DNA from: Verrucomicrobiia bacterium
GTDB lineage: Bacteria; Verrucomicrobiota; Verrucomicrobiia; JADLBR01; JAIBCM01
DNA: 64,000 nt
NCBI GenBank assembly: GCA_019694135.1
Contig: JAIBCM010000002.1
Coordinates: 22,143 to 86,142 of the forward strand
Direction: 5' to 3'
Position numbers and translations under genes: made by a program. Below are positions 3,701 to 39,124 of the stretch, one piece after another. Within the stretch, counting starts at the first letter, position 1. The number at the start of each line of letters is the position of its first letter. Under the pieces are notes generated by a model. The model was not told the DNA's origin. It did not search any database and saw nothing but the letters and a program-made list of their open reading frames with translations.

Positions 3701-4557
3701 AGGCCTTGAGGAAATTCATTTTCTTCGAGTTGTAAAACTTCCTGCAACTCTTGCATGATGAGAGGGGTGAAATATTTGTTTAATCCTACTGAAGTTTCTG
3801 GAACGAGACGAATTCGTTTTTGTCGCGCTTGCCAGGCTTGTTGTGATGTGATGAATTTTTCTTCCACCATGGTTTGTAAAACACGATCTCTTCCCTGAAG
3901 CGCTTTTTGATAGTCGCGTCTCGGTGAGGCGCTATTAGGAGAACGAATTAACCCGGCGAGCATGGCGCATTCCCCGAGGGTGAGTTGTTTAGCTGATTTA
4001 CCGAAATAGCCGCGCGCTGCGGCTTCTAAACCAAAATAGCCTTTGCCGAAATAGATTCGGTTGATGTAATAATCTAAGATCTCCTGTTTGGTAAAATGAT
4101 TTTCAATACGAAGCGCTAAAAAAGTTTCTATTAATTTACGATCCCAAGAGCGTTCAAACATGCCGATAGCATTTTTGGCGAGCTGCTGGGTAATGGTGCT
4201 TCCACCTTGAGTAAATTGGCCTGATTTTAAGTTAACTACGAGAGCCCGAACAATTCCGATGATATCAATGCCGTAATGCCAATAAAAACGACGATCTTCT
4301 GCGGCAATAATAGCTTGGCGCATGAGGTCTGGAATTTCATTATGTTTTAATACGATGCGATTTTCTAATGCAAGTCGTCCGATTTCCTTATCATTATCAT
4401 CATAAAAAATGCTCGTTTCATTGTATTTTGCGAGATCGTTCAGATCGTATTGTTGTGCAAGTTGATAGTGCGTTTTAACTTTGGGATAAAGCAGCCAAGT
4501 CGCTAATGTGATCAAGAGCAGAAAAAAAACTAAGCTTAACGTAAGAAATCGTTTCAT
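796..4557 (-). CDS. Multimodular penicillin-binding protein: GT51 transglycosylase, degenerate class-A transpeptidase, class-B (PBP2-like) dimerisation and transpeptidase module
   Basis: GT51 motifs EDRRFYWHYG and GGSTITQQ are present. The class-A TP region has ASLY in place of SxxK and lacks KTG. The C-terminal module has PBP2-like motifs QPTFDPN, PGSVFK and AGKTGTAQ. I place the start at MKRFLTLSL (ATG at 4555-4557), which overlaps the upstream stop by ATGA. A TM helix follows that start. Confidence 0.85.
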   Translation of the reverse strand: MKRFLTLSLVFFLLLITLATWLLYPKVKTHYQLAQQYDLNDLAKYNETSIFYDDNDKEIGRLALENRIVLKHNEIPDLMRQAIIAAEDRRFYWHYGIDIIGIVRALVVNLKSGQFTQGGSTITQQLAKNAIGMFERSWDRKLIETFLALRIENHFTKQEILDYYINRIYFGKGYFGLEAAARGYFGKSAKQLTLGECAMLAGLIRSPNSASPRRDYQKALQGRDRVLQTMVEEKFITSQQAWQARQKRIRLVPETSVGLNKYFTPLIMQELQEVLQLEENEFPQGLRVYTTLNTTLQQAAERAVSETLTQVEWELTQEKNLRKTIENPGPLQAAVLILDAVEGAVQAYVGGRDFTQSQFDRITMAQRDNGASLYPFLYALAMQNLGWHPASLIDSSFIDKPEIKTSQAITFGNPEQNLNRRFFLLQDALAGNYKTAAIRTAHQIGLANLAQWLKNTGIRFDENFLPKTFHDFRPLTLWEITSLYQILANQGTQKKAFFIRSIRDGKNKLLYRRPHVAGLPQLEALTAQQMTLTLEQTLRDKAWRQDLTQPATGVSSFSENQRDAWFLGYTPRWVTGVWVGYDPSISIGNKTLASKTAIPLWEKIVNRLPSSPTNFAIPSSLIKVEVEKNTGTVQGLAGFAPSPGDTFVYLKQSQLNSMNTLPVSRINRVAENEDWSRWLQTLFSNPSELISQAPSEENDHASIPPVAEYIMPPLRGDIVAANGSPLATTLSGQSLVLPWPSLETANSAEEALTWIKPKLELASNWLEKSITFSNETLTNHYNFQRFQPVVISDLTPEKVSQFNNSKLRDEGFVLQTYPKRVYPENQLLAHTLGYLQRAQTPRIGPYQANLVIYDQYQGAEGLEKIFDRELNGQAGKFVIATTPEGFTQRTAIEKQATSGLNIRTTFDLELQKAVEKSLTNIAAGAVVIMNVTNGDIVAMASQPTFDPNDFLPALSSEKWQSFLQAEDNPLQNRAIRQFHPPGSVFKIITTLASLQAGTFDPERIVYCKGYYQIGNVRFNLPRETYPVSFRNAFAQSINTYFIDLGLRTGRTALINVATNLGIGQITGVPLPGELAGLMPTPDYIRKKYGRIMGAGDVANVSIGQGDLLTTPLQIANAVAAIANHGTLYRPRIVSEFFDQNGQTVKTFPPEILNTLSFTPEQFDLVKEAMVSVTEEGTGRRAQVSGIQVAGKTGTAQVGSKAKPRQIAWFAGFLPADNPRYAFAVMVEGSFEESLSGGVDAATLIGEIFKKDKG

Positions 4558-6620
4558 TGCGTAGCTTCTTCCAATGTTCCCTCGGAAATTTCTTCTGTAG
4601 CCGGCAAAGGTTGTTCCTGTGGAGGTGAAGAAGATTCTTGAGAATAAATGGTGGCTTGAGGAATATAACCCAGTTGTTGGCTTAATGAACCCAACCAGTA
4701 GCATCGCCAAAATTGGCGCAAAGCTTCCATGCGGTCTTGGTCGTCAGGACTCATTTTTAGCACAGTGGCATATTCGTAGATCATGGCTAAAGGGGAGGTG
4801 TCGATATCGACATTTTGTGCTGCAGCCATTCCTTGACGTGCTGTGATTTCAGCGTTTTGTAACATTTTTTCTAGAGCGAGGCGGTTGCTTAAAGACCATT
4901 TTAAAGAATCTAATTTGAGTGAAGCGTTCCAATAAAAATATTTTTCCTTTAAAAGATCGGTTTCTAAAAAATAATTAATATCAAGAAAACATTGGGCGAC
5001 ATCATTGAAAGCAAATGAGGCGGCAGAAGTGGGCTGAGGTTGGGGTGGGCGATAGGCAGGGCCGGGAGTAAAACCGGCGTTCGCCAGAAGTGCACGTGGA
5101 ATTTGATGCGTTTCCCATTTTTTTTCCCAACTACGCTTGATGCGTTGTAGTAAGGTAGTTTGGCTTGCCAAACGAGTGTCCCAAATTAGTGAAGATTGCC
5201 ATTGGCTAGCGCGCTGTTTGATTTGGCCAGTAAAAGATTCACCTTTAGCTAGGAGCGCAGGTGTCAATTGATTGAGCCAATCGGTGGCGCGATGAGAAAA
5301 AGCGGAGGAGTCCGATTTTTTAAAGTTACGCTGGAAAACGGGAAAAATATCTCGGAGTTGGGTCTGATAGGTCACATAATAAAAACCGCTCATGAGCAAA
5401 ATAGCTGCTCGTTTTTTTTCATCTTCGGTTGCATCTGATTGCGAATGCCACGCTTGTCGGGCAATGGCAAGAGGACCCTCCAGTTTGGTTTGAAGAGTGA
5501 GCAACCAGTCATTGCGTTCTGACAAAAATAGACTGAGGCTCAAGTCGTTTTTATCCCATTCTTTATCTTGAGTTTTTTGAATGACGTCATCGAGTAGGCT
5601 TGAGGTTTGAGTGACAAAAGATTTTAATTGAGCTGAGTTTAAGTTAGTTTTGAAAGCTTGAGTGGCGGCGATTTCGCTTGAGGCGTCAATAAGGAGACGA
5701 TAAGCCGCGTAAACTTGGCCAGCTTGGTAAGCTTGCGAGCCTTGTTCAAAGAGCGACAAAGCGCGTTGCCAGATGGCTTGTTCCCAAGGAGAAAGTTGCT
5801 GTAGGGCTTGTGTAGAAGGCCAGAGATTTTTCGTGCGCAACAGTTCGTTAATTTGATTTTGGCAACGTTGCGCTAAAAAACTGAATGTGCTGTTGGAATA
5901 ACGACAGGGTGTGGTATTCCAAGTTGCTGAAGGCAGGCTGTGATCCAATGCTATTTCGGCAGCTTCAGCTAAGTTTTGGGCATAAAAAACTTTTAATTTT
6001 AATGTCTTGGCTTTCGCGGCGGTATCTAAAAGTTTATTGGGATGAGTGCGATCCAAGTGTTGATTGTCAGATAAAATTATTTTTTTTATACCGGTGTTGA
6101 CAGCCAGTTCCATGCGTGATTCAACATTTTGAACAGGACCGAGCGATTGATCGGGTAGTAGAGTAGCGAGAAGTAATGTGTCTTGAGGATAGTCGATGCC
6201 GCAAGCGGTAGCGAGTAAACCGAGCGATAGCGAAGCGCAGCTTTCTGAATCGATGGCACCGCTAAGTTCGCTCAAAACCCAATCAGCATTTTGCCAGGGT
6301 TGTTGCCACAATATTGCACTGGCCAGGGTGGCGGGCCAAAGTTGTTGGGATAACGATTGTGTGGTTTCAGGTGACATAGCACCGTCAAACCGAAAGTTAA
6401 TGGTTTCTGAAGTGGTTTCGATTTGGGGATTCCATTGAATATTAAGTTGGGAGAGTGTGATGTTTGAGTTTTTATCCAAAACGAAAAGAGGAATTTTTTG
6501 TTCAAATAATTCTTCTGTTTTTTTAAATAAAGGGAGCGATGCCCCGTGGGCAGGGAAAATAAAAACAAGAAATAGTCCTAACCATTGGCAGGTTCGTTGA
6601 TAAGAAAAATAATTACACAT
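4554..6620 (-). CDS. Secreted protein with N-terminal Lon-protease (S16)-like domain and long helical C-terminal region
   Basis: Signal-peptide-like N-terminus MCNYFSYQRTCQWLGLFLVFIFPAHGA. The segment DSESCASLSLGLLATACGI...LGPVQNVESRMELAVNTGIKKIIL aligns to the Lon block DGPSAGIAM...[24 protein letters not shown]. The catalytic Lys position reads as Glu. Confidence 0.6.
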   Translation of the reverse strand: MCNYFSYQRTCQWLGLFLVFIFPAHGASLPLFKKTEELFEQKIPLFVLDKNSNITLSQLNIQWNPQIETTSETINFRFDGAMSPETTQSLSQQLWPATLASAILWQQPWQNADWVLSELSGAIDSESCASLSLGLLATACGIDYPQDTLLLATLLPDQSLGPVQNVESRMELAVNTGIKKIILSDNQHLDRTHPNKLLDTAAKAKTLKLKVFYAQNLAEAAEIALDHSLPSATWNTTPCRYSNSTFSFLAQRCQNQINELLRTKNLWPSTQALQQLSPWEQAIWQRALSLFEQGSQAYQAGQVYAAYRLLIDASSEIAATQAFKTNLNSAQLKSFVTQTSSLLDDVIQKTQDKEWDKNDLSLSLFLSERNDWLLTLQTKLEGPLAIARQAWHSQSDATEDEKKRAAILLMSGFYYVTYQTQLRDIFPVFQRNFKKSDSSAFSHRATDWLNQLTPALLAKGESFTGQIKQRASQWQSSLIWDTRLASQTTLLQRIKRSWEKKWETHQIPRALLANAGFTPGPAYRPPQPQPTSAASFAFNDVAQCFLDINYFLETDLLKEKYFYWNASLKLDSLKWSLSNRLALEKMLQNAEITARQGMAAAQNVDIDTSPLAMIYEYATVLKMSPDDQDRMEALRQFWRCYWLGSLSQQLGYIPQATIYSQESSSPPQEQPLPATEEISEGTLEEATQ

Positions 6621-15956: not shown

Positions 15957-18900
15957 CTAACTTTGATTGATAGAGCGAGACAAAACGGTTTGATGAGATG
16001 AAATTTGATTCATTAATGTTTCGACACGTTTTTGAGCGGCTTGCATTTTGGGGTAGCGTACGTCGCGATAACCCGAAACTTGTTCGGGTTGACGCAGTAT
16101 TTCTACCCAAGTTGAGTAGAAATTATCATCCGACTCTTGAGTGAAACGTTCTACTAACTGTAAATACCAATCGCGAAATTGTTTTTCTTGTTTATGCCAT
16201 TCGGGCAATAGCTTGCGAAGAAATTTAGCTTGCTTCATCAAATGCAACATCCAATCGCGGCTGCGCAGTTTAAATTTTATTTTTTGACCAGCGATGACGA
16301 ATTCAGGTCGGTTAAGATGGCTATAAACAATGCGATCACCGCGAGAAGGATCGACATGATAACGCTCGTAATCGAGTTGATATTTTTCTTCGCGAGTGAG
16401 TAAGTAAGCGACGTAAATTTCATCTTTAATGGCCATGACTTTAAATGCGTTCCAAATTATGGCTTTCGTGGCAGCGTAATCGTGTTTGGCAGTATCTTGT
16501 TGATAGGCGGCATGCACCGTTTGGATATAACGTTCCGCATAAGCAGCATTTTCATAAAGAAGCAGCTCATAAATACGCAAAGCAAATTGACGCAATATTT
16601 CTTCATCCAGATGTAAGGGCGTGATAGCTTGAGTCGTTAAACGCCATAGCGTGCGTGCGAGTTGCTGTCCTTTTTTACCTTGTTTTTGGAGTAAAGCCGA
16701 TTTTTCAGCAATGACATCATGATAGGTTTTGACAGGTTTCGCTTGTAATTCGGCTTGATGACAAACAACGTAACGCCCGAGATTAAATGCCTTCCAATTA
16801 TCCGTGCCCGCAGCGCCCATGGTTTCTTTGATGGCCCATTCCAAACTAGGCAAAGAGAGCGGAAGTTCACCGCGTTGAAAGGCCGCGCCAATCATGATGA
16901 TATTTGCGTAAAGTTTTGTGCCAAAATATTTCTCTGAAATTTCAGAAATATTGAAAGAAAAATAGCGATCCGGATGTGTGTATTGTCGAACGGTTTGTTC
17001 TATAGTCGAAATACAAAAATCGGCTTTGCCGAGCAGGGTGTAAATAGTGGGAGTTTTGTGCGTGTTAAGAATAGCTCCAGTGCGATGAGGGGATCCTACG
17101 CGTTGATTGATTTTAGGATCAAGTCCACGTGCGGCCTCCAAGGGATCAATGCCTAAAATGAGATCGGCTTTGCCATAAGGAATTAGCGCAGAAGTGTGAT
17201 TTTCTCCTTCTTTGAGATAAGTGATGTAGGCGTAAACACCGCCGTTTCGAATGGCTAACCCGTTTTTATCGCAAAAAATAACGCGATAACCTTCGCGATG
17301 ACCTGCCCGCACCAAAGTTGCCGTGCTGGTGGCAATGCCCATGCCTCCGACTCCGGCAAGGTAAGCACGCCAGGAATGAGAGAAAGAAGGGATTTTGGGA
17401 AGAGGCAAATCTTCCAAATGTAATGCTTCAAGTTTAGGGCTAGGTTTTTCGTGACGAATGATTGTGATTTCCTCGAAAGAAGGGCAGGCATAAATTTTCG
17501 TGCAAGCGGTATCAGCTACGCACCAGGAGAGATCAGTTTGAATTTTTCGACCGAGATTAGTTTCGGTAAAGGTTAAGCCCGGACAGCCGGTAGCCATTGT
17601 ACATTCCAGACAGTTTTCACAAACGTCGGCAGTTACATTAATAAATCGTTTCGTTCGTAAATAACCTTTTTGCCGAATTTCGCGTCGTTCCATTTGATTG
17701 TTGCGACGATGGTAAGTGATACCACACTCTTTATCGGCAATGATAATTTTAACTCCATCTTTCAGGATCGTTTCTTCCAAGAGAGTGCGGTATTGGTCTC
17801 GTGCTTCAGGATTAACACGAATGATTTCGATGTGAGTTTGTTCTGCGATGGCTTGAATGATTTTGTCGATGCTTTGTGTAAAAGTGTCATTGCCCAAAAT
17901 ATCTTTTTCTAAACCGGGCGTGGTTTGGTGTCCGGTCATAGCCGTGGTTTTGTTATCGAGAATAATGTAGGTGATATCTTGACCATTTTTTACAGAGTTG
18001 GAGATGGCAAGTTGGCCACTATGGAAAAAAGTGGAATCGCCCATGAAAACAACTTGTTTATTGCTGATAAAAGGATCAATGCCCAAACCTGTACCGCCTC
18101 CTAGCCCCATGCCACTGTAGTTGTGCATTAAATCCTTAGTGGGTTCGAACATCAACATGGTGTAACAACCGGTGTCACCATGAAAAACAAGGTCGATCGG
18201 ATTTTTGCGATGTTTTTGACGCATGTAATCAGCGTTTAAAAAATCACGTTTTACTTCTACCAGCACCGAAGCTGAATCGCGATGAGGACAGCCTGGACAA
18301 AAAGTCGGTGTGCGTGGCGTGAGATCGACATCGTAAGCGGCATTTTCGGCGAGCAAAGCTAATTCGACTTCAATTTGCTGTTGTTTTTTCTCGAAGATAG
18401 GATGATTAATTTTTTGAAATAAAGGCGCTAACTGTTCCAAAACCAGGGAGGGATTTAAACCGCGATGCTCGGGCATGCCTGGCAGTTGAAAAGGAAATTT
18501 TTTGCCATGAATTTTTAATGGTAACCCTTTCTGATTAGCAAGATTTGCTAGCTGTTCTTCAATAAAACCACGACGTTCTTCAACTACGACAACTTGATCA
18601 CTTAGAGTGGCCAATTTATCTAAATGTTCGGGATTGATAGGATAAGTAATTCCCAATTTGAGAATGGGCAACTCATCTTCTAGTCCCAATTCCGCTAAAG
18701 CATGTTGCAAGTAAGTATAAGCCATCGCGGATGAAACCAAAACCAAAGGAAACTTTGTAGTGGGGGATGGAGGGTTAGGGACGAACCATTGATCTACACC
18801 ATATTTTTCCGCGCTTTGCCACAAACGTTCATAGCGCGAAGGCAGATCCTGCTCCTTGCGCCAGGTGCGTGGTGGAAGAAGCACTTTATTTTCAAAATCG

Positions 18901-19559
18901 ACTTGAGCGGTTTCGAGATGAACTTGATTGTCTGTATTGATTCGCGGGAAATGATTTTTTTTCACTCGAACTGTTCCACCTCCATCGGCTAAATTGGTGG
19001 TGACAAGGTAGCTAATGTAAAGTTCTGACTCGCGCGAAAGTTTGAATCCAAGATCAATCCAATCTTTCATTTCTTGGGGTGTGCTGGGTTCTAGCACGGG
19101 CATGAAAAGATGTTTGCTAAGAAAACGGGAATCGGCAGGAACTTGGGTAGAATCGCTCCAGGGATCATCGCCCATGACAACCACTACGCCTCCTTCGGGA
19201 TGAGCACCGCCAAGATTCCCTAAGGCTAAAGCATCCGACGCAACATGTACGCCTACACTTTTCATGACGGTAATTGCGCGCAACCCTAACATTTGGGAGC
19301 CGTTAACCATCGCTGCAGAAAGCGCTTCGTTATGAGCCATAATGGCTTTAATCCCATAATGTTTGGGAATTTCTTGAATCGCTTCAATCGTGTCAAAGAA
19401 TCCGGCAACGGGTGATCCGGGGTAACCCGTCCATAAATGCGTGCCGCCTTCTGTTTCCAGAAGACCTTTTACCAGGAGTTCGTTACCCAAAAAAATTTCG
19501 AGACCTTCTTCCTTAAGGAAGCGGGAGTCGACCTTAGCGAGAGAGCTGCTTTTGGCCAT
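15957..19559 (-). CDS. Indolepyruvate/2-oxoacid:ferredoxin oxidoreductase, fused alpha-beta (IorA-IorB) type, 1200 aa
   Basis: TPP-binding and ferredoxin-like Cys clusters (CPGCPH and CxxCxxC) are present. The length matches fused Ior-family enzymes. Confidence 0.7.
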   Translation of the reverse strand: MAKSSSLAKVDSRFLKEEGLEIFLGNELLVKGLLETEGGTHLWTGYPGSPVAGFFDTIEAIQEIPKHYGIKAIMAHNEALSAAMVNGSQMLGLRAITVMKSVGVHVASDALALGNLGGAHPEGGVVVVMGDDPWSDSTQVPADSRFLSKHLFMPVLEPSTPQEMKDWIDLGFKLSRESELYISYLVTTNLADGGGTVRVKKNHFPRINTDNQVHLETAQVDFENKVLLPPRTWRKEQDLPSRYERLWQSAEKYGVDQWFVPNPPSPTTKFPLVLVSSAMAYTYLQHALAELGLEDELPILKLGITYPINPEHLDKLATLSDQVVVVEERRGFIEEQLANLANQKGLPLKIHGKKFPFQLPGMPEHRGLNPSLVLEQLAPLFQKINHPIFEKKQQQIEVELALLAENAAYDVDLTPRTPTFCPGCPHRDSASVLVEVKRDFLNADYMRQKHRKNPIDLVFHGDTGCYTMLMFEPTKDLMHNYSGMGLGGGTGLGIDPFISNKQVVFMGDSTFFHSGQLAISNSVKNGQDITYIILDNKTTAMTGHQTTPGLEKDILGNDTFTQSIDKIIQAIAEQTHIEIIRVNPEARDQYRTLLEETILKDGVKIIIADKECGITYHRRNNQMERREIRQKGYLRTKRFINVTADVCENCLECTMATGCPGLTFTETNLGRKIQTDLSWCVADTACTKIYACPSFEEITIIRHEKPSPKLEALHLEDLPLPKIPSFSHSWRAYLAGVGGMGIATSTATLVRAGHREGYRVIFCDKNGLAIRNGGVYAYITYLKEGENHTSALIPYGKADLILGIDPLEAARGLDPKINQRVGSPHRTGAILNTHKTPTIYTLLGKADFCISTIEQTVRQYTHPDRYFSFNISEISEKYFGTKLYANIIMIGAAFQRGELPLSLPSLEWAIKETMGAAGTDNWKAFNLGRYVVCHQAELQAKPVKTYHDVIAEKSALLQKQGKKGQQLARTLWRLTTQAITPLHLDEEILRQFALRIYELLLYENAAYAERYIQTVHAAYQQDTAKHDYAATKAIIWNAFKVMAIKDEIYVAYLLTREEKYQLDYERYHVDPSRGDRIVYSHLNRPEFVIAGQKIKFKLRSRDWMLHLMKQAKFLRKLLPEWHKQEKQFRDWYLQLVERFTQESDDNFYSTWVEILRQPEQVSGYRDVRYPKMQAAQKRVETLMNQISSHQTVLSRSINQS

Positions 19560-27297: not shown

Positions 27298-28317
27298 ATG
27301 ATTGTTGTATTAAAACCAAATGTTTCTAAAGACGCTGTGCGACGTGTGATCGCTGAAGTGGAAAAACTGGGGTATAAAGCGCATCCTGTGATCGGTGAGC
27401 TGCAAACCATTATCGCTGCGATTGGCGATGAGACGGCGCATCACACTTTGGAAACTTTAACGGCGTGGCCCGAAGTGGAATCCGTATTGCGAGTGCAAAA
27501 ACGTTATAAGTTAGTGACACGTGAGGGAGATCGCAAGGACACGCATATTAAAATTCAAGATCAGTGGATTGGCGCTGGCAAAAAGTTATCGCTCATGGCG
27601 GGTCCCTGTTCAGTAGAAAGTGAAAAGCAGACAATTGAAACGGCTATTGCGGTGAAGGAAGCAGGCGCTACGATTTTGCGTGGTGGGGCTTTTAAGCCAC
27701 GCACGTCGCCTTATGAATTCCAGGGATTGGGTAAAGAAGGTTTGAAAATTTTGGCCAAAGCAAAAAAAGAAACAGGTTTGGCTATTATTACAGAACTACT
27801 TTCCGAAAGTGATGCGGAATTAGTGGCGGAGTATGCCGATATTTTACAGATCGGCGCGCGAAATGCTCAGAATTTTCAACTTTTGATTCGTGCAGCGAAA
27901 ACAGGTCGACCCATTTTGTTGAAACGCGGTTTGAGTGAGCGGATTGAAGAATGGATGTTGGCAGCGGAATATATTTTGGCCAATGGTAATCCCAATGTTT
28001 TTCTTTGTGAACGTGGGATTCGCACTTTTGAAACTTTTACACGAAACACTCTAGACCTAAGCGCTGTGGCTATTGCTAAAAAGGAAACACATTTACCTGT
28101 AATTGTTGATCCGAGTCAAGGCTGTGGTCGTGCTGATTTAGTGATTGAAATGTGTAAAGCAGCTATCGCCATTGGGACTGATGGACTTTTGATTGAGGTT
28201 CACCCTAATCCTGCGGAAGCTTGGAGTGACGGTCAGCAACAGCTTGATATTAATACTTTCAAACGATTAGTAAAAGAGTTGGAGCCTTTTATTCAGGCAG
28301 TGGGACGGCCACAATAA
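27298..28317 (+). CDS. aroF: 3-deoxy-7-phosphoheptulonate (DAHP) synthase, class I-beta with N-terminal ferredoxin-like regulatory domain
   Basis: The LMAGPCSVESEKQ core matches the KDO8P/DAHP synthase family. The N-terminal ~70 aa look like the Thermotoga-type regulatory extension. Confidence 0.8.
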   Translation: MIVVLKPNVSKDAVRRVIAEVEKLGYKAHPVIGELQTIIAAIGDETAHHTLETLTAWPEVESVLRVQKRYKLVTREGDRKDTHIKIQDQWIGAGKKLSLMAGPCSVESEKQTIETAIAVKEAGATILRGGAFKPRTSPYEFQGLGKEGLKILAKAKKETGLAIITELLSESDAELVAEYADILQIGARNAQNFQLLIRAAKTGRPILLKRGLSERIEEWMLAAEYILANGNPNVFLCERGIRTFETFTRNTLDLSAVAIAKKETHLPVIVDPSQGCGRADLVIEMCKAAIAIGTDGLLIEVHPNPAEAWSDGQQQLDINTFKRLVKELEPFIQAVGRPQ

Positions 28318-28344: not shown

Positions 28345-29763
28345 ATGGAACGCGTGTTATTGTTACAAGCCTCAGAAGACACTCAGCAGTTGCTTGATTC
28401 TTTATTTCAAAAAGATGCGGTGCAATGGATTATTCAGGCACAGGCCAATTTAGCGACGCTGGAAAGACAGCGGCCAGATTTAGTTTTATTAGAGTTGGGC
28501 TCTGATTCTTTATCTGGATTGAAACAACTTCAGTTGTTGCGTAAAGCTCGTATTCAATTGCCTGTCATTATTATTTCATCCGATCGCAGCCCTGAGTTAA
28601 CCATGGAGGTGATGAAGTATGGCGCTTATGATATTTTGCATACGCCATTGGATCGGGATCAGGCTAATTTTTTAATCCGTGACGCGCTCAATACGGTGCG
28701 CAATATTAAATCATTAAAAACAGGTGCAGAAACTGGCACGTCTTTTTTTTCTGAGGATATGGTTGGAGCGACGCCGGAAATGCAGGCGATTTTTAAATTG
28801 ATCGGACAAATTGCTCCGAGCCATGCCACGGTGCTGATTACGGGTGAAAGTGGTGTAGGCAAAGAGTTAATTGCGCGTGCAATCTATCGTCACAGTTTGA
28901 GAAAAGGGCAGCCTTATATGGCTGTGAATTGTGCGGCGATTCCTGATACTTTGTTGGAGAGCGAGTTGTTTGGGCATGAAAAAGGGGCTTTTACGGGAGC
29001 TACACAAACGCGGCAGGGTAAGTTTGAATATTGTGATGAAGGCACTTTGTTTTTGGACGAAGTAGGTGATCTTTCTGCTAATACCCAAGCTAAACTTTTG
29101 CGGGTGCTGCAGAATGGGGAAATTACTCGCATTGGCAGCAATGTGCCGATTCATGTGAATGTTCGCATGATCGCTGCGACTAATCGTAATTTGGAGAAGG
29201 AAGTAGCAGAAAAACGGTTTCGCGAAGATCTTTTTTATCGGTTGAATGTGGTGCGTTTGGAGGTGCCGCCTTTGCGGGAAAGGAAAAAAGATATTGCTGC
29301 AATCAGTTTGGCGATTCTCAAGAAAATTGCCGCGCGCGAAAATATGATGCCGCCTTCGATTTCTGAAGAGGCGATGCAGTTATTGGAAAATTATTCGTGG
29401 CCGGGCAATATTCGGGAGTTGGAAAATAGTTTGCATCGGGCGGCGGTGTTATCTTCAGGGGAAACCATCTTTCCGCATCATTTGCCCAAGACAATTTTGG
29501 GAGCGGAATTGTTTTTGAAATCCGAACGAACGACTATGAGAAAAGCTCAAGATTCTGAGAAAGATCAACTTTTTCAAGAATTGATTGCGGAAGCTCAGCA
29601 GCAAGCGCCCTCCGATATTTTGGGTTGGATTGAGCGAGAGATGATTCGCCGCATTTTTCAAAAAACCGGTGAAAACCAGTTGCAAACGGCCAAGCAATTA
29701 GGTATTTCGCGCATTACTTTGCGAAAACGTTTGGTGGATTTAGGATTGATTCAAGGGGCTTAG
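28345..29763 (+). CDS. Sigma-54-dependent transcriptional activator (NtrC family) with atypical receiver domain
   Basis: The AAA+ module has GESGVGKE, ESELFGHEKGAFTGA and RELEN motifs, and there is a C-terminal Fis-type HTH. The receiver has Glu at the phospho-Asp position (LVLLELG). Confidence 0.85.
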   Translation: MERVLLLQASEDTQQLLDSLFQKDAVQWIIQAQANLATLERQRPDLVLLELGSDSLSGLKQLQLLRKARIQLPVIIISSDRSPELTMEVMKYGAYDILHTPLDRDQANFLIRDALNTVRNIKSLKTGAETGTSFFSEDMVGATPEMQAIFKLIGQIAPSHATVLITGESGVGKELIARAIYRHSLRKGQPYMAVNCAAIPDTLLESELFGHEKGAFTGATQTRQGKFEYCDEGTLFLDEVGDLSANTQAKLLRVLQNGEITRIGSNVPIHVNVRMIAATNRNLEKEVAEKRFREDLFYRLNVVRLEVPPLRERKKDIAAISLAILKKIAARENMMPPSISEEAMQLLENYSWPGNIRELENSLHRAAVLSSGETIFPHHLPKTILGAELFLKSERTTMRKAQDSEKDQLFQELIAEAQQQAPSDILGWIEREMIRRIFQKTGENQLQTAKQLGISRITLRKRLVDLGLIQGA

Positions 29764-29847: not shown

Positions 29848-29919
29848 AGCCGGAGAGGAGGATTGAACTCCCGACCCACGGTTTACGAAACCGTTGCTCT
29901 ACCACTGAGCTACTCCGGC
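29848..29919 (-). tRNA. tRNA-Thr (anticodon CGT)
   Basis: Acceptor GCCGGAG/CUCCGGC with U73. Anticodon loop UUCGUAA. T-arm GGGAGUUCAAUCCUCC. Confidence 0.85.
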
Positions 29920-30038: not shown

Positions 30039-30329
30039 ATGGCTGATGCAGTAGAAGTTACCGCGATTGTGAAGGAGGTGTTGCCTGCGACGATGTTTCG
30101 AGTTCAACTCGAAAATGGGAACGTGTTGTTGGCGCATCTTTCCGGTCGCATGCGAAAAAATTTTATTAAGATTATGTCAGGAGATAAAGTGACAGTTGAA
30201 ATCAGTCCTTACGATTTGACCAAAGCGCGCATTACTTATCGTCATCCCACGGTAAGCAGCGCGGCGAGTGGCGCTGTTTCCACAGTCATGAAGCAGGGCA
30301 AGATTCAGAGAAGACAAGGCAAACGATAG
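30039..30329 (+). CDS. infA: Translation initiation factor IF-1 with ~24-aa basic C-terminal extension
   Basis: The core [48 protein letters not shown] is close to E. coli IF-1. Confidence 0.85.
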
Positions 30330-33396: not shown

Positions 33397-35370
33397 ATGC
33401 CAGCATCACTCACATCGGTTTCAGGGAAAAGTTCTAGTAGAATTGAGACGGTGAATTTTGATTTGGAATCGCGAGTCAATGCGGCGATTCATGCGTCTCA
33501 AAATCATCTGCTTTCTTTACAACATCCTGATGGTTATTGGGTGGGAGAGTTAACCGTCGACACCACTTTGATTTCGGATCTGGTGCTTTTTATGCATTGG
33601 CGGGGTAAGGTGGATTTTGCGAAGCAAGCGAAATGCGTGAAGCATTTGTTAGATCGTCAGTTGCCAGATGGTGGTTGGAATATTTATGTGAATGGCCCCA
33701 GTGAGGTTAATGCCAGTGTTAAAGCTTACTTTGCTTTAAAATTAGCCGGTTTATCGCCTCAAGAGCCTGCGATGAAAAAAGCGCATGCCAATATTTTGCG
33801 TTTGGGAGGAATTCCTAAAATGAACACTTACGCGAAATTAAATTTAGCGTTGGTGGGACAATTTTCTTGGAAATATCTTCCGATTATTCCTGTTGAGATT
33901 ATTTTGCTTCCCAAATGGTTATATTTTAATATTTACGAAATGTCTTCTTGGAGTCGGGCTATGCTTTGTCCGCTCGCTATTATTAACCATTTTCGACCCA
34001 CACGTCCACTTCCGCCGGAAAAACAGTTGCATGAACTCTTTCCTTACGGAACGGAGCATAACGATTTTTCGTTAAAGTATGATTCAAAGTTTTTTACTTG
34101 GCGCAATTTTTTCCTGCGTTGGAACGATTTTTTAAATTTTGTGGATGGTTTGCCTTATAAACCTTTTCGTTCTGTAGCATTGAAGAAAGCTGAACAATGG
34201 TTGTTGGCGCGAATTAGTGAAGGCAGCGATGGGTTGGGGGCGATTTATCCTGGTATTTTTAATGCCATTGTTGCTTTGGAATGTCTCGGTTACTCCGATG
34301 AACACCCCATCATGCAAAAGCAGTTAAAACATTTTGAAGAATTGGAAGTTGACGATATTGTAAATAACGATTTTCGTGTGCAGCCCTGCTTATCTCCTGT
34401 ATGGGACACCGCTATTACTTCAGTGGCATTGGCTGAATCGGAAGTGCCCGCTGATCATCCTGCACTGCAAAAAGCGGCCGATTGGTTGTTGAGCAAAGAA
34501 GTGCATTTTCGAGGTGATTGGCAATACAAAAATCCTTACCCTGTTGCTTCGGGATGGGCATTTGAGTTTAATAATGAATATTATCCCGATGTGGATGATA
34601 CTTTGAAAGTGCTTTTGGCGCTTCGCTTAGTACAAACTTCGAACGAATCTAGTAAACAAGAAGTCATAGAGCGGGCTTTAGGTTGGGTATTAAGTTTTCA
34701 ATGTAAAGATGGGGGTTGGGCAGCTTTTGACAAGGATGTGACGAAACATTGGCTGGAAGATGTGCCTTTTGCGGATCATAATGCTATTTTGGATCCTACT
34801 TGTAGCGATATCACAGCGCGCTGTTTGGAGTTGCTCGGCAAGTTGGGTTATCGCAATAACACGCGTTTTATTAAACGCGCTCTTGCCATGCTTCAAAAGA
34901 CTCAGGAATCGGACGGTTCCTGGTTTGGTCGCTGGGGCGTGAATTATATTTATGGAACGTGGCAAGTGTTGCGAGGGGTAAGTGCTTTAAACGAAAATAT
35001 GAATGAAGATTGGATTGTGCGTGGCCGCGACTGGTTAGAATCGTGTCAAAATTACGATGGAGGTTGGGGCGAAACGTGCGCGTCTTATGATGATTCCGCT
35101 TTAAAAGGAAAAGGTCCCAGCACAGCTTCTCAAACAGCTTGGGCGCTAATGGGTATCATTGCTTGCGGCGATCCTCATCGAATTAGCATTCAAAAAGGGG
35201 TGGATTATTTATTGCGCACACAAAATTCCAATGGGAGCTGGACAGAAGAAGAGACCACGGGAACGGGTTTTCCTAAGGTGTTTTATTTGCGTTATGATAT
35301 GTATCGCAATAACTGGCCTTTACTTGCTTTAGCGGAGTATAAGAAGTTGCGTGCCCAATTTCCTGCATAA
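33397..35370 (+). CDS. shc: Squalene-hopene cyclase
   Basis: The DVDDT active-site motif (YYPDVDDTLKVL) and multiple QW repeats (G/W-rich) are present. Length is 657 aa. Confidence 0.9.
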   Translation: MPASLTSVSGKSSSRIETVNFDLESRVNAAIHASQNHLLSLQHPDGYWVGELTVDTTLISDLVLFMHWRGKVDFAKQAKCVKHLLDRQLPDGGWNIYVNGPSEVNASVKAYFALKLAGLSPQEPAMKKAHANILRLGGIPKMNTYAKLNLALVGQFSWKYLPIIPVEIILLPKWLYFNIYEMSSWSRAMLCPLAIINHFRPTRPLPPEKQLHELFPYGTEHNDFSLKYDSKFFTWRNFFLRWNDFLNFVDGLPYKPFRSVALKKAEQWLLARISEGSDGLGAIYPGIFNAIVALECLGYSDEHPIMQKQLKHFEELEVDDIVNNDFRVQPCLSPVWDTAITSVALAESEVPADHPALQKAADWLLSKEVHFRGDWQYKNPYPVASGWAFEFNNEYYPDVDDTLKVLLALRLVQTSNESSKQEVIERALGWVLSFQCKDGGWAAFDKDVTKHWLEDVPFADHNAILDPTCSDITARCLELLGKLGYRNNTRFIKRALAMLQKTQESDGSWFGRWGVNYIYGTWQVLRGVSALNENMNEDWIVRGRDWLESCQNYDGGWGETCASYDDSALKGKGPSTASQTAWALMGIIACGDPHRISIQKGVDYLLRTQNSNGSWTEEETTGTGFPKVFYLRYDMYRNNWPLLALAEYKKLRAQFPA

Positions 35371-36063
35371 ATGGCGACACCTGTCTCTTTAGCTGTTTTT
35401 TTTGCTGTGCCTCATGAAGCTGCGTTATTGAAAAAAAAACTGAAATTTCGATGGCAAAAAAAAGGCGTTGGCTTGTTTTTTGCTGAAACTCGGGTGAGGG
35501 ATAAAACCATTCTTTTCGCTTGTTTAGGAATGGGCAAAGAAGCAGTGAAGAAAAATTTAACATTTCTTTTAGATTATTTTACTTTTTCTCAAGCGATTTT
35601 AGCGGGTTACGCTGGAGCGCTCGATCCCAAACTCGAAAAAGGAGATATTGTCATTTCTGATAAGCGATACTTGGATTTATTGCCTGATTTAAAATTAGGA
35701 AAAATTATTTCTGTTGATACAGTAGCAGCTACTGCCGAAGAAAAATATGCGCTATTTCAAAAAACTGGCGCTTCTGTTTGCGATATGGAGTATGAAGCAG
35801 CTTTGGTGATTTGTCAGAAACACAACCTTACTTTGTATTCGATTCGAGCTGTGAGCGACACGGCTCACGAGAATTTACCTTCAGGCGCGCTAGCAAGCGC
35901 TTTTGATTTAAAAAGGCAACGATCAACTCCTTTAAAGATTTTTTGCTATGGGATAAGACATCCTCGGAATATGATTTCTTTTTTTAAATTTGTTCATGGA
36001 CTGGCAAAATCTCAAAGAGCTTTAACACAAATCTTGATTCAAATATTAAAAAATCAATCTTAG
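35371..36063 (+). CDS. hpnG: Hopanoid-associated nucleoside phosphorylase (PNP/MTAN family, HpnG-like)
   Basis: The protein has the PNP_UDP_1 fold with GMGKEA and CDMEYEAA...IRAVSD motifs. The gene sits immediately 3' of shc. Confidence 0.6.
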   Translation: MATPVSLAVFFAVPHEAALLKKKLKFRWQKKGVGLFFAETRVRDKTILFACLGMGKEAVKKNLTFLLDYFTFSQAILAGYAGALDPKLEKGDIVISDKRYLDLLPDLKLGKIISVDTVAATAEEKYALFQKTGASVCDMEYEAALVICQKHNLTLYSIRAVSDTAHENLPSGALASAFDLKRQRSTPLKIFCYGIRHPRNMISFFKFVHGLAKSQRALTQILIQILKNQS

Positions 36064-38258
36064 TTTTGGATAATCATTGAAGCCACTCTTTTTCCGCTCC
36101 AAATGGCGCCCTCAATAGTTGCTGGCAAACCCGTGTTAGTCCAATCACCTGCTAAGTAAAAATTTTTCCACTGTGTTTGGCAATCAGGGCGATAGGGTAA
36201 TGTTTCAGGTCGCGTTTGAAACGTGGCATCGCGAGCGCGATAGATAAAATGGTGTAAGAGTTTAGCTGTCTTACTTTTTGGCAAAAAGCGATAACATTCT
36301 TGTAGTGCTAGTTGTAATAATTCTTCTTGAGAGGTTTTTTCAAACTCGTAAGCGGCGCTAATCACTAAGGCAACACTGGGATAAGCTGTTTTTTCCAGGT
36401 CAGAAATTTTGGTTTTGTTAAAGAGCCAGTGGATGGGTGAATCGAGAAATCCGAGAAAAGGCTCTTCGCAAATTTCTTGATCGAACCAGAGATGGATTCC
36501 GATAATAGGGGAGCCGTGCAAGTGGGAAATTTGTTGTGCAAGCGAACTGTTTTCGGGTAGTAGTTTTCGGATTGCGTGCCAAGGCATGGCAGAAATAATG
36601 GTATCAGCTTCTAAAATAGTGCCATTTTGGAGTTCTACTTTTGCTGCTAAAGCATTTTCAAAATGAATTTTTTGAATGGCTTGACCGCAAAGAATTTTAC
36701 CGCCTGCTGCTTGAATGATATTAGCAGCAGGCTGAACGAGTAATTGGCTAAGCCCTACTCGACTAAAAAGAATAGTGGAATCTTCTCTGGAACCAAGAAA
36801 GGCACGACGGATAACTTCGCCAAACAGAGAGGCTGATGCGGTAGAGATGGTTTCGTTGAGCGCAGCAATACAAAAGGGTTCCCAAAGACTGCGAATGGTA
36901 TTGGGTGTCTGTCCACACGCTTGCAACCATTCTTCAGCGGTGGAGGAGCGCCATTTTTCTCCTTTCGAATCGAGTTTGGCAGAAATGCCAACTTCCATAG
37001 CGCGAAATTTTTCAGAAAGAGAAAGTTCCTGAAAACCGAAAATAGCGCTTGCGAGATGAAAAGGGGCGGGCAAAGCAGCAGCTTGTAATCGAGTGATATG
37101 TTTGGCTTCGCTGACATAAGGCACATTGAGTTTGGTTTCAGGTCGTAGAAGATGTTGCGAGCCGATACGATTAAGAAGTTCTAAAGTCGCGTGATAGCAA
37201 CCCATTAATATGTGTTGTCCGTTATCAATGTTGTCACCCGTTTTGGGATCGCGAAAAGAATGGGAGCGTCCTCCTAATGTTTGACGAGCTTCGACAAGGG
37301 TGATTTCGTGGCCGCTACGGGTAAGATGCACGGCCGTACTTAAACCTGCGACACCACCGCCAAGAATTAAGATTTTTTTTGTTGGAACGAGGGTATATTT
37401 TTTATTTTTTACCTTTTTTCTTTCCTGACGAATGGCGCGTTGCATGAGCCAGGCTTTTTTCATTTTTGAAAAAGCAATAGGTTTGTGCCAAATATCGTAA
37501 TCTTGATTGCGCGCTTTTTGAAGCATTTCAAAATAAATGCTGCACATGATTTGGGCGGCCAGCATTTTGGGTTTGTCTTCAGGTGGAAGGGCTCGTTCGG
37601 CGGCAGCGTAGAGATGGTAGGCGCGTTCGCCCATCAAACGGAAAAGATTTAGAGCGCGCTCATTAATGTGAGTTTTTTTTAATTCTTCGCGAGAATAGTT
37701 TGCGCGTTGAAAATCTTCTTCTGGTAGATAAATGCGCTGATTGGTCAGATCGGTTTTTACATCGCGAAGAATGTTTGTGGTTTGAAATGCGAGACCTAAA
37801 AGTTCTGCGTAATGTTTTGTTTGAGGATTGGTGTAGCCGAAAATTTCGATGCTAACCAATCCCACGCAGGAAGCGACGCGATAACAGTATTGGCGAAGTT
37901 GTTCCCAGCTTTCATAAACTACTGGTTCGAGATCCATTGCGACGCCGTTTATAATTTCTTGCAGATAAATTTCGGGAATAGAATAGTGTTGAATGACTTG
38001 GGCGAGTTCGCGCGCTAGAGGTAAAGTTAAACTGTTTTGATTTTGATAACAGAGCTCAATTTCTTTTCGCCATTGATCCAATTGTTTTTGTTTTTCGGTA
38101 AGAGATAGAGTGGTGGAATCCGCGATATCGTCTACTACGCGGCAAAAAGCGTAAAAGATCGACATGGCATTTCTTTTTTCAGCGCTAAGAAAAGAAAAAG
38201 AAAGCGCCAGATTGGAACCGCTTTTTTTTGTTATGCTAGTTGCGCTGGAAGTGCTCAC
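36060..38258 (-). CDS. Fusion protein: presqualene-diphosphate synthase (HpnD-like SQS/PSY domain) + FAD-dependent hydroxysqualene dehydroxylase (HpnE, amine-oxidase fold)
   Basis: The N-terminal ~290 aa carry the Asp-rich motifs FCRVVDDIAD and LRDVKTD. The C-terminal ~440 aa begin with the FAD Rossmann motif ILILGGGVAGLSTA. Confidence 0.8.
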   Translation of the reverse strand: MSTSSATSITKKSGSNLALSFSFLSAEKRNAMSIFYAFCRVVDDIADSTTLSLTEKQKQLDQWRKEIELCYQNQNSLTLPLARELAQVIQHYSIPEIYLQEIINGVAMDLEPVVYESWEQLRQYCYRVASCVGLVSIEIFGYTNPQTKHYAELLGLAFQTTNILRDVKTDLTNQRIYLPEEDFQRANYSREELKKTHINERALNLFRLMGERAYHLYAAAERALPPEDKPKMLAAQIMCSIYFEMLQKARNQDYDIWHKPIAFSKMKKAWLMQRAIRQERKKVKNKKYTLVPTKKILILGGGVAGLSTAVHLTRSGHEITLVEARQTLGGRSHSFRDPKTGDNIDNGQHILMGCYHATLELLNRIGSQHLLRPETKLNVPYVSEAKHITRLQAAALPAPFHLASAIFGFQELSLSEKFRAMEVGISAKLDSKGEKWRSSTAEEWLQACGQTPNTIRSLWEPFCIAALNETISTASASLFGEVIRRAFLGSREDSTILFSRVGLSQLLVQPAANIIQAAGGKILCGQAIQKIHFENALAAKVELQNGTILEADTIISAMPWHAIRKLLPENSSLAQQISHLHGSPIIGIHLWFDQEICEEPFLGFLDSPIHWLFNKTKISDLEKTAYPSVALVISAAYEFEKTSQEELLQLALQECYRFLPKSKTAKLLHHFIYRARDATFQTRPETLPYRPDCQTQWKNFYLAGDWTNTGLPATIEGAIWSGKRVASMIIQN

Positions 38259-38272
38259 GGAGATTTAAAAAT

Positions 38273-39124
38273 TTAAAGTTTAAAGCAGGCTTTGGGTAAG
38301 AGTCGCAGAATGTCCCATTTTGAAAGTGTGGGACGTTGATGGAGTGTGTAATAATTAATTTTTTCTATTTTTCGTAAAATCTCGGTTCCGCCTAGCCAGG
38401 TGAGTCGAATTTCGAATCTTAGCCCGCGAGTGAGATATTCCGGTAAACGTTTGCCTTCGTTAAAAATTTGCCAGGTGCGATCGACTTGGAATTTCAACAA
38501 GTTCCGAAATTGAGGAGTGTCGGCATTATTTTTTAACTGCGTTTCATCGATTTGAAAAGTGTCCATATCATTTTTCGGAAGGTAAATGCGATCTTTCAAA
38601 AGATCAACGCTCACGTCTTGCCAGAAATTGGCAAGTTGCAAGCCAGTGCAAATTTTATCGCTCAGTTGATGAAGTGTTTCGTCGCGATAATTAAAAACAT
38701 GAAGAACCAAACGTCCGACTGGATTGGCGCTACGACGACAGTAGTCTAAAACCTCATCAAAGTTAGTATAACGAGTTTTGACTATGTCTTGTTTGAAAGC
38801 AGAAATAAGATCGCGAAATAGTTGAATGGGAAGCTGACATTTTTCAATGGCTTCGCGCAATGCGATAAAAATCGATTCTTGATTTTTGCCTTCTAGAGCT
38901 AGATCTAAATGATTTTCCCAACGTTCTAGAAGTTCAATTCTTTCGGGAACAGTAAGGGTTTGAACGGTTTCATCGGCAAAGTCATCCGCGGTGCGAGCAA
39001 AAGCGTAGACCGCGTGAATATATTTACGTTGAGGTTGAGGCAAAAGCCGCGAGCCTACAGGAAAATTTTCGTAATGGTCTTGCGCCTGGCGAGAGCATTG
39101 GAGGTAGGCTTCTTCGAGAGTCAT
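38273..39124 (-). CDS. hpnC: Squalene synthase family protein HpnC (hydroxysqualene synthase-like)
   Basis: HYENFPVGSRLLP and ARTADDFADE motifs. Length is 283 aa. Confidence 0.75.
   Translation of the reverse strand: MTLEEAYLQCSRQAQDHYENFPVGSRLLPQPQRKYIHAVYAFARTADDFADETVQTLTVPERIELLERWENHLDLALEGKNQESIFIALREAIEKCQLPIQLFRDLISAFKQDIVKTRYTNFDEVLDYCRRSANPVGRLVLHVFNYRDETLHQLSDKICTGLQLANFWQDVSVDLLKDRIYLPKNDMDTFQIDETQLKNNADTPQFRNLLKFQVDRTWQIFNEGKRLPEYLTRGLRFEIRLTWLGGTEILRKIEKINYYTLHQRPTLSKWDILRLLPKACFKL

Follow-up and report, generated by a model that had tools for sequence, protein, structure and literature searches.

How is a sigma-54-dependent activator controlled once its receiver domain has lost the residues of phosphotransfer? 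This question is raised by a gene at 28345-29763 on the forward strand of the stretch of DNA analysed here, a 64,000-nucleotide part of contig JAIBCM010000002.1 (positions 22,143 to 86,142, assembly GCA_019694135.1) from a Verrucomicrobiia bacterium, to which we refer as the window. The product resembles NtrC, and a preliminary description of the sequence had presented it as phospho-blind and as a natural counterpart of the constitutive NtrC allele D54E. According to our analysis, the protein is likely to be an NtrC-type activator with an aspartate-less pseudo-receiver, which would exert a fixed or non-phosphoryl control over the oligomeric state of its AAA+ domain.

Receiver active site and domain architecture

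The features of the gene and its product, all on the forward strand, are as follows, with the basis of each assignment in brackets.

28345..29763, +, gene for a sigma-54-dependent enhancer-binding protein of 472 amino acids, consisting of pseudo-receiver, AAA+ domain and Fis-type helix-turn-helix (HTH) (open reading frame, translation, Pfam)
28345..28653, +, pseudo-receiver core, residues 1-103, with a (beta-alpha)5 CheY-like fold (PF00072, AlphaFold, Foldseek)
28366..28371, +, Gln8-Ala9 in place of the Mg2+-binding acidic pair (DD) (alignment, site table)
28492..28494, +, Glu50 (codon GAG) at the phospho-acceptor position, end of beta3 (DNA read, alignments)
28576..28578, +, Ser78 at the conserved Thr/Ser position, end of beta4 (site table)
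28633..28635, +, Ile97 at the switch Tyr/Phe position (K-3) (site table)
28642..28644, +, Thr100 at the conserved Lys position, beta5-alpha5 loop (pairwise alignments, site table)
28654..28758, +, alpha5 (long helix) and Gly-containing linker, residues 104-138 (models, conservation)
28759..29505, +, sigma-54 interaction AAA+ domain and lid, residues 139-387 (PF00158, PF25601)
28843..28866, +, Walker A, GESGVGKE, residues 167-174 (motif search)
28984..29001, +, GAFTGA sigma-54 contact loop, residues 214-219 (motif search)
29047..29061, +, Walker B, LFLDE, residues 235-239 (motif search)
29629..29733, +, Fis-type HTH_8 DNA-binding domain, residues 429-463 (PF02954, 27.7 bits against a cut-off of 22)

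The acceptor position of the receiver is occupied by glutamate. The codon at 28492-28494 reads GAG, and three independent phmmer alignments with solved structures (LuxO 5ep0, NtrX 4d6x and PmrA 9of3) place Glu50 on the acceptor aspartate and Thr100 on the conserved lysine. The stretch around Glu50, PDLVLLELGSDSLSG, pairs with PDLILLDLRLPDMTG of LuxO, with NtrX and with DLILLDLGLPMMDG of PmrA, the acceptor segments being PDLILLDL in 5ep0 and DLILLDLG in 9of3, and DILHTPL of the window protein is set against DFLIKPC, DFIEKPF and DYLIKPY. A MAFFT alignment of 36 sequences, which comprised 35 homologues and among them canonical cousins, gave the same register. Because these four independent alignments agree, we assign Glu50 to the acceptor position and Thr100 to that of the lysine in the KPF motif. 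Both assignments had been made in the preliminary description, and no aspartate of the window protein falls on the acceptor site in any of the alignments.

The degeneration of the active site extends further than had been described: neither the acidic pair (Q8, A9) nor the switch aromatic residue (I97) is retained, and these losses are fixed throughout the clade of close relatives that is presented below. In total, four of the five catalytic residues (D, both residues of the DD pair and K) are replaced, and the Thr/Ser position alone keeps a hydroxyl group (Ser78). The protein therefore shares the fold and the Thr/Ser residue of a canonical receiver, but has neither the acceptor Asp nor the DD pair nor the Lys. 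With a Response_reg (PF00072) match at residues 11-106 that exceeds the gathering cut-off (42.7 against 30.2 bits) and with D, DD1, DD2 and K replaced, it falls under the published definition of a pseudo-receiver or aspartate-less receiver (PMC12632262; PMC4395418). Because D, DD and K are absent, standard phosphotransfer chemistry is predicted to be unusable by this protein, which very probably acts independently of phosphorylation.

The gene itself is intact, and its start is the first start codon past an upstream stop. A wrongly chosen start codon was considered and rejected, as 28345 is the first start after that stop and the orthologues share the same Met. A sequencing error or chance substitution was likewise rejected, since the Glu pattern is fixed in all 23 members of the clade.

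The output domains appear fully equipped. Sigma54_activat (PF00158) matches residues 139-305 with an E value of 2.4e-72 and is followed by the lid AAA_lid_14 (PF25601), and the AAA+ region aligns with ZraR 1ojl over 250 residues. The segment ESELFGHEKGAFTGA, which spans residues 205-219 and ends in GAFTGA, is invariant in the 36-sequence alignment. The arginine-finger motif FRxDLxYRL is present as FREDLFYRL (residues 292-300), and WPGNIREL of the sensor II region is intact (residues 352-359). That GAFTGA and the Fis-type HTH are intact, as had been stated before, is borne out by the motif search and by the PF02954 score. From this perfectly conserved GAFTGA/AAA+ machinery we infer that the protein depends on sigma-54.

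Among the NCBIfam models, ntrC, atoC and similar ones match best, and all of them score well below their equivalog cut-offs, with 412.2 against 558.6 bits for the best match, ntrC TIGR01818, and 350.4 against 620 bits for PRK10923 (NtrC/GlnG equivalog). Because of these scores we assign the protein, by its sequence, to the NtrC-family enhancer-binding proteins and not to NtrC proper. No glnA or ntrB context was found around the gene.

The Glu-bearing clade and its canonical cousins

A homologue search placed the window protein in a discrete group with 22 relatives at 56-95% identity, beyond which the next homologues drop to 44-47%. The members are from uncultured Verrucomicrobiales, the nearest being P0001, a Verrucomicrobiia metagenome-assembled genome (MAG), at 95% identity. 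The receiver sites of these 23 proteins were compared with those of the 13 next-nearest cousins, many of which carry the Joint Genome Institute label NtrC/GlnG.

DD pair: Q/N/H followed by a variable residue in the clade (23/23); DD in the cousins (13/13)
Acceptor D: Glu in the clade (23/23); Asp in the cousins (13/13)
T position: S/A/T in the clade (23/23); Thr in the cousins (13/13)
Switch Tyr position: I/L/V in the clade (23/23); Tyr in the cousins (13/13)
K position: T/S/A/V/M/I in the clade (23/23); Lys in the cousins (13/13)

The orthologues thus share the glutamate without exception (23/23), and the Glu pattern appears to be a property of the whole clade and not an allele. We posit that Glu50 matters for something, because it is invariant although K is absent and hypervariable and the T position varies between S, A and T. 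A clade-specific conserved motif, E-x-G-x-D, was found in the beta3-alpha3 loop; Asp45 is invariant and Asp54 nearly so, and neither the receiver nor the linker contains a Cys that is conserved in the clade.

The distribution of the clade is narrow. A scan of GTDB with one genome per species recovered it in eight genomes, all of them MAGs of Verrucomicrobiia/Verrucomicrobiales; two further hits (L013 and L014) were set aside as unrelated receiver matches at 29-31% identity. When a profile of the pseudo-receiver was run against 1.84 billion representatives clustered at 50% identity, one cluster, the clade's own, fell below an E value of 1e-30, with no members from other phyla, and the remaining matches reflected generic receiver similarity.

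The domain is predicted to fold as a receiver. The AlphaFold model of the receiver alone is confident (predicted local distance difference test score, pLDDT, 82; predicted template modelling score, pTM, 0.75) and runs from beta1-alpha1 to beta5-alpha5 in canonical order; beta3 ends at Glu50 and beta4 at Ser78, and Thr100 directly follows beta5. The predicted alpha5 helix covers residues 104-125/129 and leads into a disordered, Gly-containing linker of low confidence. The top Foldseek matches are the receivers of Spo0F, NtrX, NtrC1 and LuxO, with the highest query TM-score (0.78) for the full-length NtrC1 structure 4l4u. A model of the full-length protein built from the 36-sequence alignment (pTM 0.38) was poor in the AAA+ domain and was used for the secondary structure of the receiver only.

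The length of the receiver is the same in all 23 clade members. Its conservation is uneven when the clade and the canonical cousins are compared element by element.

beta1-alpha1 loop: clade 0.53, canonical cousins 1.00
alpha1 (main kinase-docking helix): clade 0.53, canonical cousins 0.90
beta4-alpha4 loop: clade 0.39, canonical cousins 1.00
beta5-alpha5 loop: clade 0.63, canonical cousins 0.98
alpha4: clade 0.93, canonical cousins 0.98
beta5: clade 0.82, canonical cousins 0.90
alpha5: clade 0.77, canonical cousins 0.77
linker: clade 0.68, canonical cousins 0.66

Mean pairwise identity of the AAA+ domain is similar in the two sets (0.81 in the clade against 0.78 in the cousins), whereas the receiver reaches 0.46 in the clade and 0.77 in the cousins. 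Within the clade receiver, alpha5 is strongly conserved as DALNTVRxIKS. The ratio of nonsynonymous to synonymous substitution rates (dN/dS) between the window gene and that of L005, the nearest relative, is 0.115 for the receiver and 0.025 for the AAA+ domain. These values point to a receiver under purifying selection, with constraint relaxed and the domain not decaying; because of a dN/dS of 0.115 we do not regard it as a pseudogene-like remnant.

In receivers of the NtrC family, the alpha4-beta5-alpha5 face serves dimerisation and the control of AAA+ ring assembly. The simplest reading of the conservation pattern would be that the surfaces for phosphotransfer and kinase recognition have been freed from selection and that the alpha4-beta5-alpha5 output face is still needed. 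The term phospho-blind, used for the window protein from the outset, is well supported by the replacement of D, DD, K and the switch Tyr together with the lost conservation of alpha1 and the active-site loops.

Gene context and possible modes of control

The local gene order is hemA, a ccsA-like gene, ispE, a gene for an unknown secreted protein, DAHP synthase, the regulator gene, tRNA-Thr, infA, a gene for an unknown membrane protein, acs and shc. The two immediate neighbours of the regulator gene are the following.

27298..28317, +, DAHP synthase with FXD regulatory domain and DAHP_synth_1 (Pfam)
29848..29919, -, tRNA-Thr(CGT), convergent, downstream boundary of the transcription unit (ARAGORN)

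DAHP synthase and the regulator gene lie on the same strand and are probably co-transcribed. The gap between them measures 27 bp and contains no terminator-like site; one such site was found at 27824-27838 (+), inside the DAHP synthase gene. L005 has this gene pair as well, and so have four further clade lineages (L002, L007/L017, L010 and L018). In other lineages, the regulator is preceded by HU-hisS (L001, L003) or argC-argJ (L016), and L015 has a divergent sulfatase gene. Among about eight distinct orthologous neighbourhoods no conserved partner gene was found, DAHP synthase alone being recurrent.

No histidine kinase gene lies beside the regulator in the window or in these neighbourhoods, a comparison that covered the surroundings of the gene, and neither a kinase nor RpoN was detected among 27 open reading frames of the window, including most of the large ones, that were scanned against Pfam. 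The missing kinase neighbour that had been noted earlier is real within these limits, but it does not discriminate between the clade and receivers with a complete active site. Three canonical cousins with DD/D/T/K intact (L019, from the complete genome of Fontisphaera persica CP116615; L020; and the P0044 contig) are orphans too, with no histidine kinase within 7 kb and with housekeeping surroundings such as truA/groESL/dnaK, beta-lactamase or methyltransferase genes. Because of these orphan cousins, orphan status is no evidence for phosphorylation independence, and it appears to predate the loss of the phospho-site. In a synteny test for positional orthology, the clade loci and the canonical cousins shared no neighbours, and the cousins were not found beside DAHP synthase. 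In three related genomes (L006, 190-1428; L008, 147-1400; L009, 3-692), a second sigma-54 activator gene, with 37-38% identity of its product to the window protein, precedes the pseudo-receiver regulator by about 9 kb.

A search for sigma-54 promoters in the 64-kb window (TGGCAC-N5-TTGCW, up to two mismatches) returned 30 matches against 35 expected, which is no enrichment. When the GG/GC core had to be intact and at most one mismatch was allowed, the window gave no match and about 330 kb of related loci yielded four unique sites, roughly matching chance by our estimate. The window accordingly holds no convincing -24/-12 element, as had been remarked in the preliminary description. One of these four sites, the sigma-54-like element TGGCATGGACGTTGCT at 6477-6492 (-) of L002, precedes a Flp/Fap pilin gene (6139-6300, -) by about 180 nt and is divergent from the DAHP synthase-regulator pair of that locus. 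It is suggestive as a possible target promoter, not statistically significant, and we treat it as a lead only.

Taking these results together, we propose the following mode of action. The AAA+ ring would assemble, the GAFTGA loop would contact sigma-54, and the Fis-type HTH would bind DNA, so that sigma-54 transcription would be activated without a kinase. The N-terminal receiver, having turned into an aspartate-less pseudo-receiver, could not take a phosphoryl group from a histidine kinase and would be kept as a folded module, in which the alpha4-beta5-alpha5 face and the long alpha5/linker are still constrained. Because the conserved face is the surface used for dimerisation and for the control of AAA+ assembly, the oligomeric state of the ATPase is most likely still determined by the pseudo-receiver, whose control would be either fixed or dependent on a non-phosphoryl input. 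What sets activity without phosphorylation may mainly be the abundance of the protein, given the probable co-transcription of its gene with DAHP synthase, and/or a partner or ligand. Glu50 may stabilise the required conformation of the receiver, rather than being a textbook phosphomimic.

Several observations weigh against this proposal. The sequence does not tell a receiver that is locked on from one that is locked off, and the long heptad-like alpha5 resembles the negatively regulated receivers of the NtrC1/DctD type, such that the pseudo-receiver could hold the ATPase off until another signal arrives. The full-length model (pTM 0.38) is uninformative on contacts between the domains, and neither a sigma-54 promoter nor rpoN was found in the window.

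Locked-on control and control by an input or repressor carry roughly equal weight in our assessment, and neither reaches an even chance. Were Glu50 a true phosphomimic as in NtrC D54E, the receiver would be locked active and the protein a constitutive activator whose output equals the amount made. This is possible though doubtful. It would suit a residue that is invariant (23/23) while other active-site positions drift, and a gene that is probably co-transcribed with the housekeeping genes DAHP synthase, hisS or argJ; against it counts that NtrC D54E itself activates only partially. D-to-E exchanges activate many response regulators (PMC12632262; Klose 1993 as cited in PMC4395418) and aspartate-less receivers carry Glu at the D position more often than any other residue, but Glu mimicry is thought to engage the conserved T and K, and the phosphomimic hypothesis has been disproved for some pseudo-receivers (PMC12632262). 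In the clade, K is absent and hypervariable, T is replaced by S/A/T and the Mg2+ pair is gone, and because the Lys partner is missing, mimicry of the D54E type appears doubtful. In the idea of a natural constitutive D54E allele, the mechanism has become questionable and constitutivity is unproven. In the alternative form of control, which we hold to be plausible without favouring it, the pseudo-receiver would take in a non-phosphoryl signal that toggles AAA+ ring assembly. Candidates for this signal are a partner protein, a small ligand bound where alpha2, beta3-alpha3 and alpha3 have been remodelled, and modification by redox chemistry or at Ser/Thr. Purifying selection on the receiver (dN/dS 0.115), the clade-specific E-x-G-x-D motif and the conserved output face agree with such a role, as does the long conserved alpha5/linker, which resembles the negative linkers of the NtrC1 type, the TM-score of 0.78 being compatible with an NtrC1/DctD-like geometry. 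Known pseudo-receivers are regulated by partners, ligands or redox state (PMC12632262). Yet none of about eight contexts offers a conserved neighbouring partner gene, receiver and linker are devoid of a conserved Cys, and the N-terminal half of the domain is poorly conserved.

It is very unlikely that the receiver is a functionless, decaying remnant and the protein PspF-like, without a regulatory domain. The drop in receiver identity to 0.46 from 0.77 in the cousins at equal AAA+ divergence would fit such decay, but constant length in all 23 members, a confidently predicted fold, a dN/dS of 0.115, the invariant Glu50 and alpha4, beta5 and alpha5 elements conserved as in canonical receivers speak for a maintained domain. 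Hardly credible is a receiver that is still phospho-regulated by a kinase encoded elsewhere, through another acidic residue (Asp54, Asp45) or through an acyl-phosphate on Glu50. Asp45 is invariant, Asp54 nearly so, and the orphan canonical cousins indicate that distant kinases are usual in this lineage. Without the Mg2+-binding DD pair and the Lys, however, the phosphotransfer apparatus is missing, conservation of the kinase-docking helix alpha1 has fallen (0.53 against 0.90), and Asp45 is also invariant in the cousins ('PD', start of beta3), which argues for a structural role. Also improbable, taken as a whole, is a scenario in which an orphan NtrC-like ancestor became a kinase-independent sigma-54 activator in one Verrucomicrobiales lineage, with the invariant Glu and the conserved alpha4-beta5-alpha5/linker face locking the ring in an assembly-competent state and with output following from joint transcription with genes of amino-acid biosynthesis (DAHP synthase, argJ, hisS, proBA neighbours). 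If true, it would amount to a natural, fixed 'D54E-like' design that links a sigma-54 regulon to amino-acid supply and not to a two-component signal.

Known systems and further genes of the window

Receivers without the acceptor aspartate, and pseudo-receivers in general, form a recognised class. Maule et al. (2015; PMC4395418, S2 table) counted 88 aspartate-less receivers with the architecture REC-Sigma54_activat-HTH_8, corresponding to 1.6% of 5479, and Verrucomicrobia are among the phyla listed for them. Glu is the commonest replacement at the D position, and nearly all characterised atypical response regulators are orphans (2025 review, PMC12632262). The window protein resembles this class in its PF00072 domain without acceptor Asp, in the Glu found instead and in its orphan gene. 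Unlike cases in which D alone is lost, its clade has lost four of the five catalytic residues while Glu is strictly invariant, and the family is very narrow (one 50%-identity cluster, eight GTDB species genomes). With laboratory alleles of the type NtrC D54E and LuxO D47E the protein shares Glu at the acceptor site of an NtrC-family receiver and the same architecture. Those alleles keep DD, T, the switch Tyr and K, whereas the window protein has lost DD, Tyr and K, and the structural basis for mimicry is unavailable to it because of these losses.

FlbD of Caulobacter is a sigma-54 activator with a non-phosphorylated receiver-like domain that is controlled by its partner FliX. Likewise, FleQ of Pseudomonas has a non-phosphorylated receiver-like N-domain and is controlled by FleN (PMC12632262). 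In these two studied sigma-54 examples, the domain serves dimerisation or control by the partner. The window protein is similar to both as an enhancer-binding protein whose N-terminal CheY-like domain is devoid of phosphorylation chemistry. Unlike the N-domain of FleQ, which is PF06490 with DD G G M at the five sites, its receiver is PF00072, and PF06490 is absent among its Pfam matches at E values up to 1. Neither a FleN- or FliX-like partner gene nor a flagellar context was found at the window locus or about eight orthologous loci. ChxR of Chlamydia trachomatis carries Glu at its acceptor site as a natural D-to-E exchange. This orphan of the OmpR family, from the Planctomycetes-Verrucomicrobia-Chlamydiae (PVC) superphylum, is phosphorylation-independent and an intrinsic dimer (PMC12632262). 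The window protein is likewise a natural D-to-E atypical response regulator and an orphan from the PVC superphylum; it is an AAA+ sigma-54 activator, whereas ChxR has an OmpR-type winged-helix output and works with sigma-70.

Closest in overall build are the orphan canonical NtrC-like regulators of Verrucomicrobiota, such as P0055 of Fontisphaera persica, with 44-47% full-length identity, the same length and architecture, a similar alpha5/linker and an orphan position among housekeeping genes. Unlike the clade, these cousins keep DD/D/T/Y/K (13/13) and conserved alpha1 and active-site loops. The window protein and its relatives are a small, previously undescribed clade within the recognised class of pseudo-receivers and not a new kind of system. 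The 2025 review counts the switching of bacterial pseudo-receivers among the questions that await an answer (PMC12632262). Here the clade provides a clean natural comparison between invariant-Glu pseudo-receivers and canonical cousins of the same architecture in the same phylum, and it is convenient for asking what an acceptor-site Glu does without its Lys and Mg2+ partners. As the organism is uncultured and no new kind of system is involved, the practical impact is modest.

Inspection of the remaining window revealed several further features. Downstream of the regulator, the infA gene (30039-30329, +) encodes an IF-1 of 96 amino acids, in which the Pfam IF-1 domain (residues 6-68) is followed by a basic C-terminal tail of about 25 residues that is atypical for bacterial IF-1. 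A gene for a 338 amino acid membrane protein without annotation starts 8 bp downstream of it.

A hopanoid/squalene gene cluster extends over 33397-39124. It comprises a PNP_UDP_1 (HpnG-like) gene at 35371-36063 and a fusion of SQS_PSY and amine oxidase at 36060-38258 (-), both from Pfam, as well as a squalene-hopene cyclase-like frame at 33397-35370 and a squalene-synthase-like frame at 38273-39124 (-), both recognised by eye. PNP_UDP_1 and SQS_PSY plus amine oxidase genes are also found a few kb from the orthologous regulator in L017 (2034-4211) and L001 (9591-10376).

An open reading frame of 1304 amino acids at 796-4710 (-) combines Transgly (109-281), PBP_dimer (763-936) and Transpeptidase (975-1288) according to Pfam. 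This unusually long penicillin-binding protein thus joins a glycosyltransferase domain of class A with a PBP_dimer domain of class-B type, with about 480 residues between them that have no assignment. Its start codon may be over-extended, because the frame overlaps the next by about 150 nt. The frame at 15957-19559 (-) encodes a fused 2-oxoacid:ferredoxin oxidoreductase-like protein of 1200 amino acids (TPP_enzyme_C, POR, DUF6537), probably an indolepyruvate/2-oxoacid oxidoreductase fusion. All 4-kb bins from 1 to 64000 show a positive GC skew, and the cumulative skew climbs steadily to 3.06; because of this uniform sign, the window appears to lie within one replichore, without origin or terminus.

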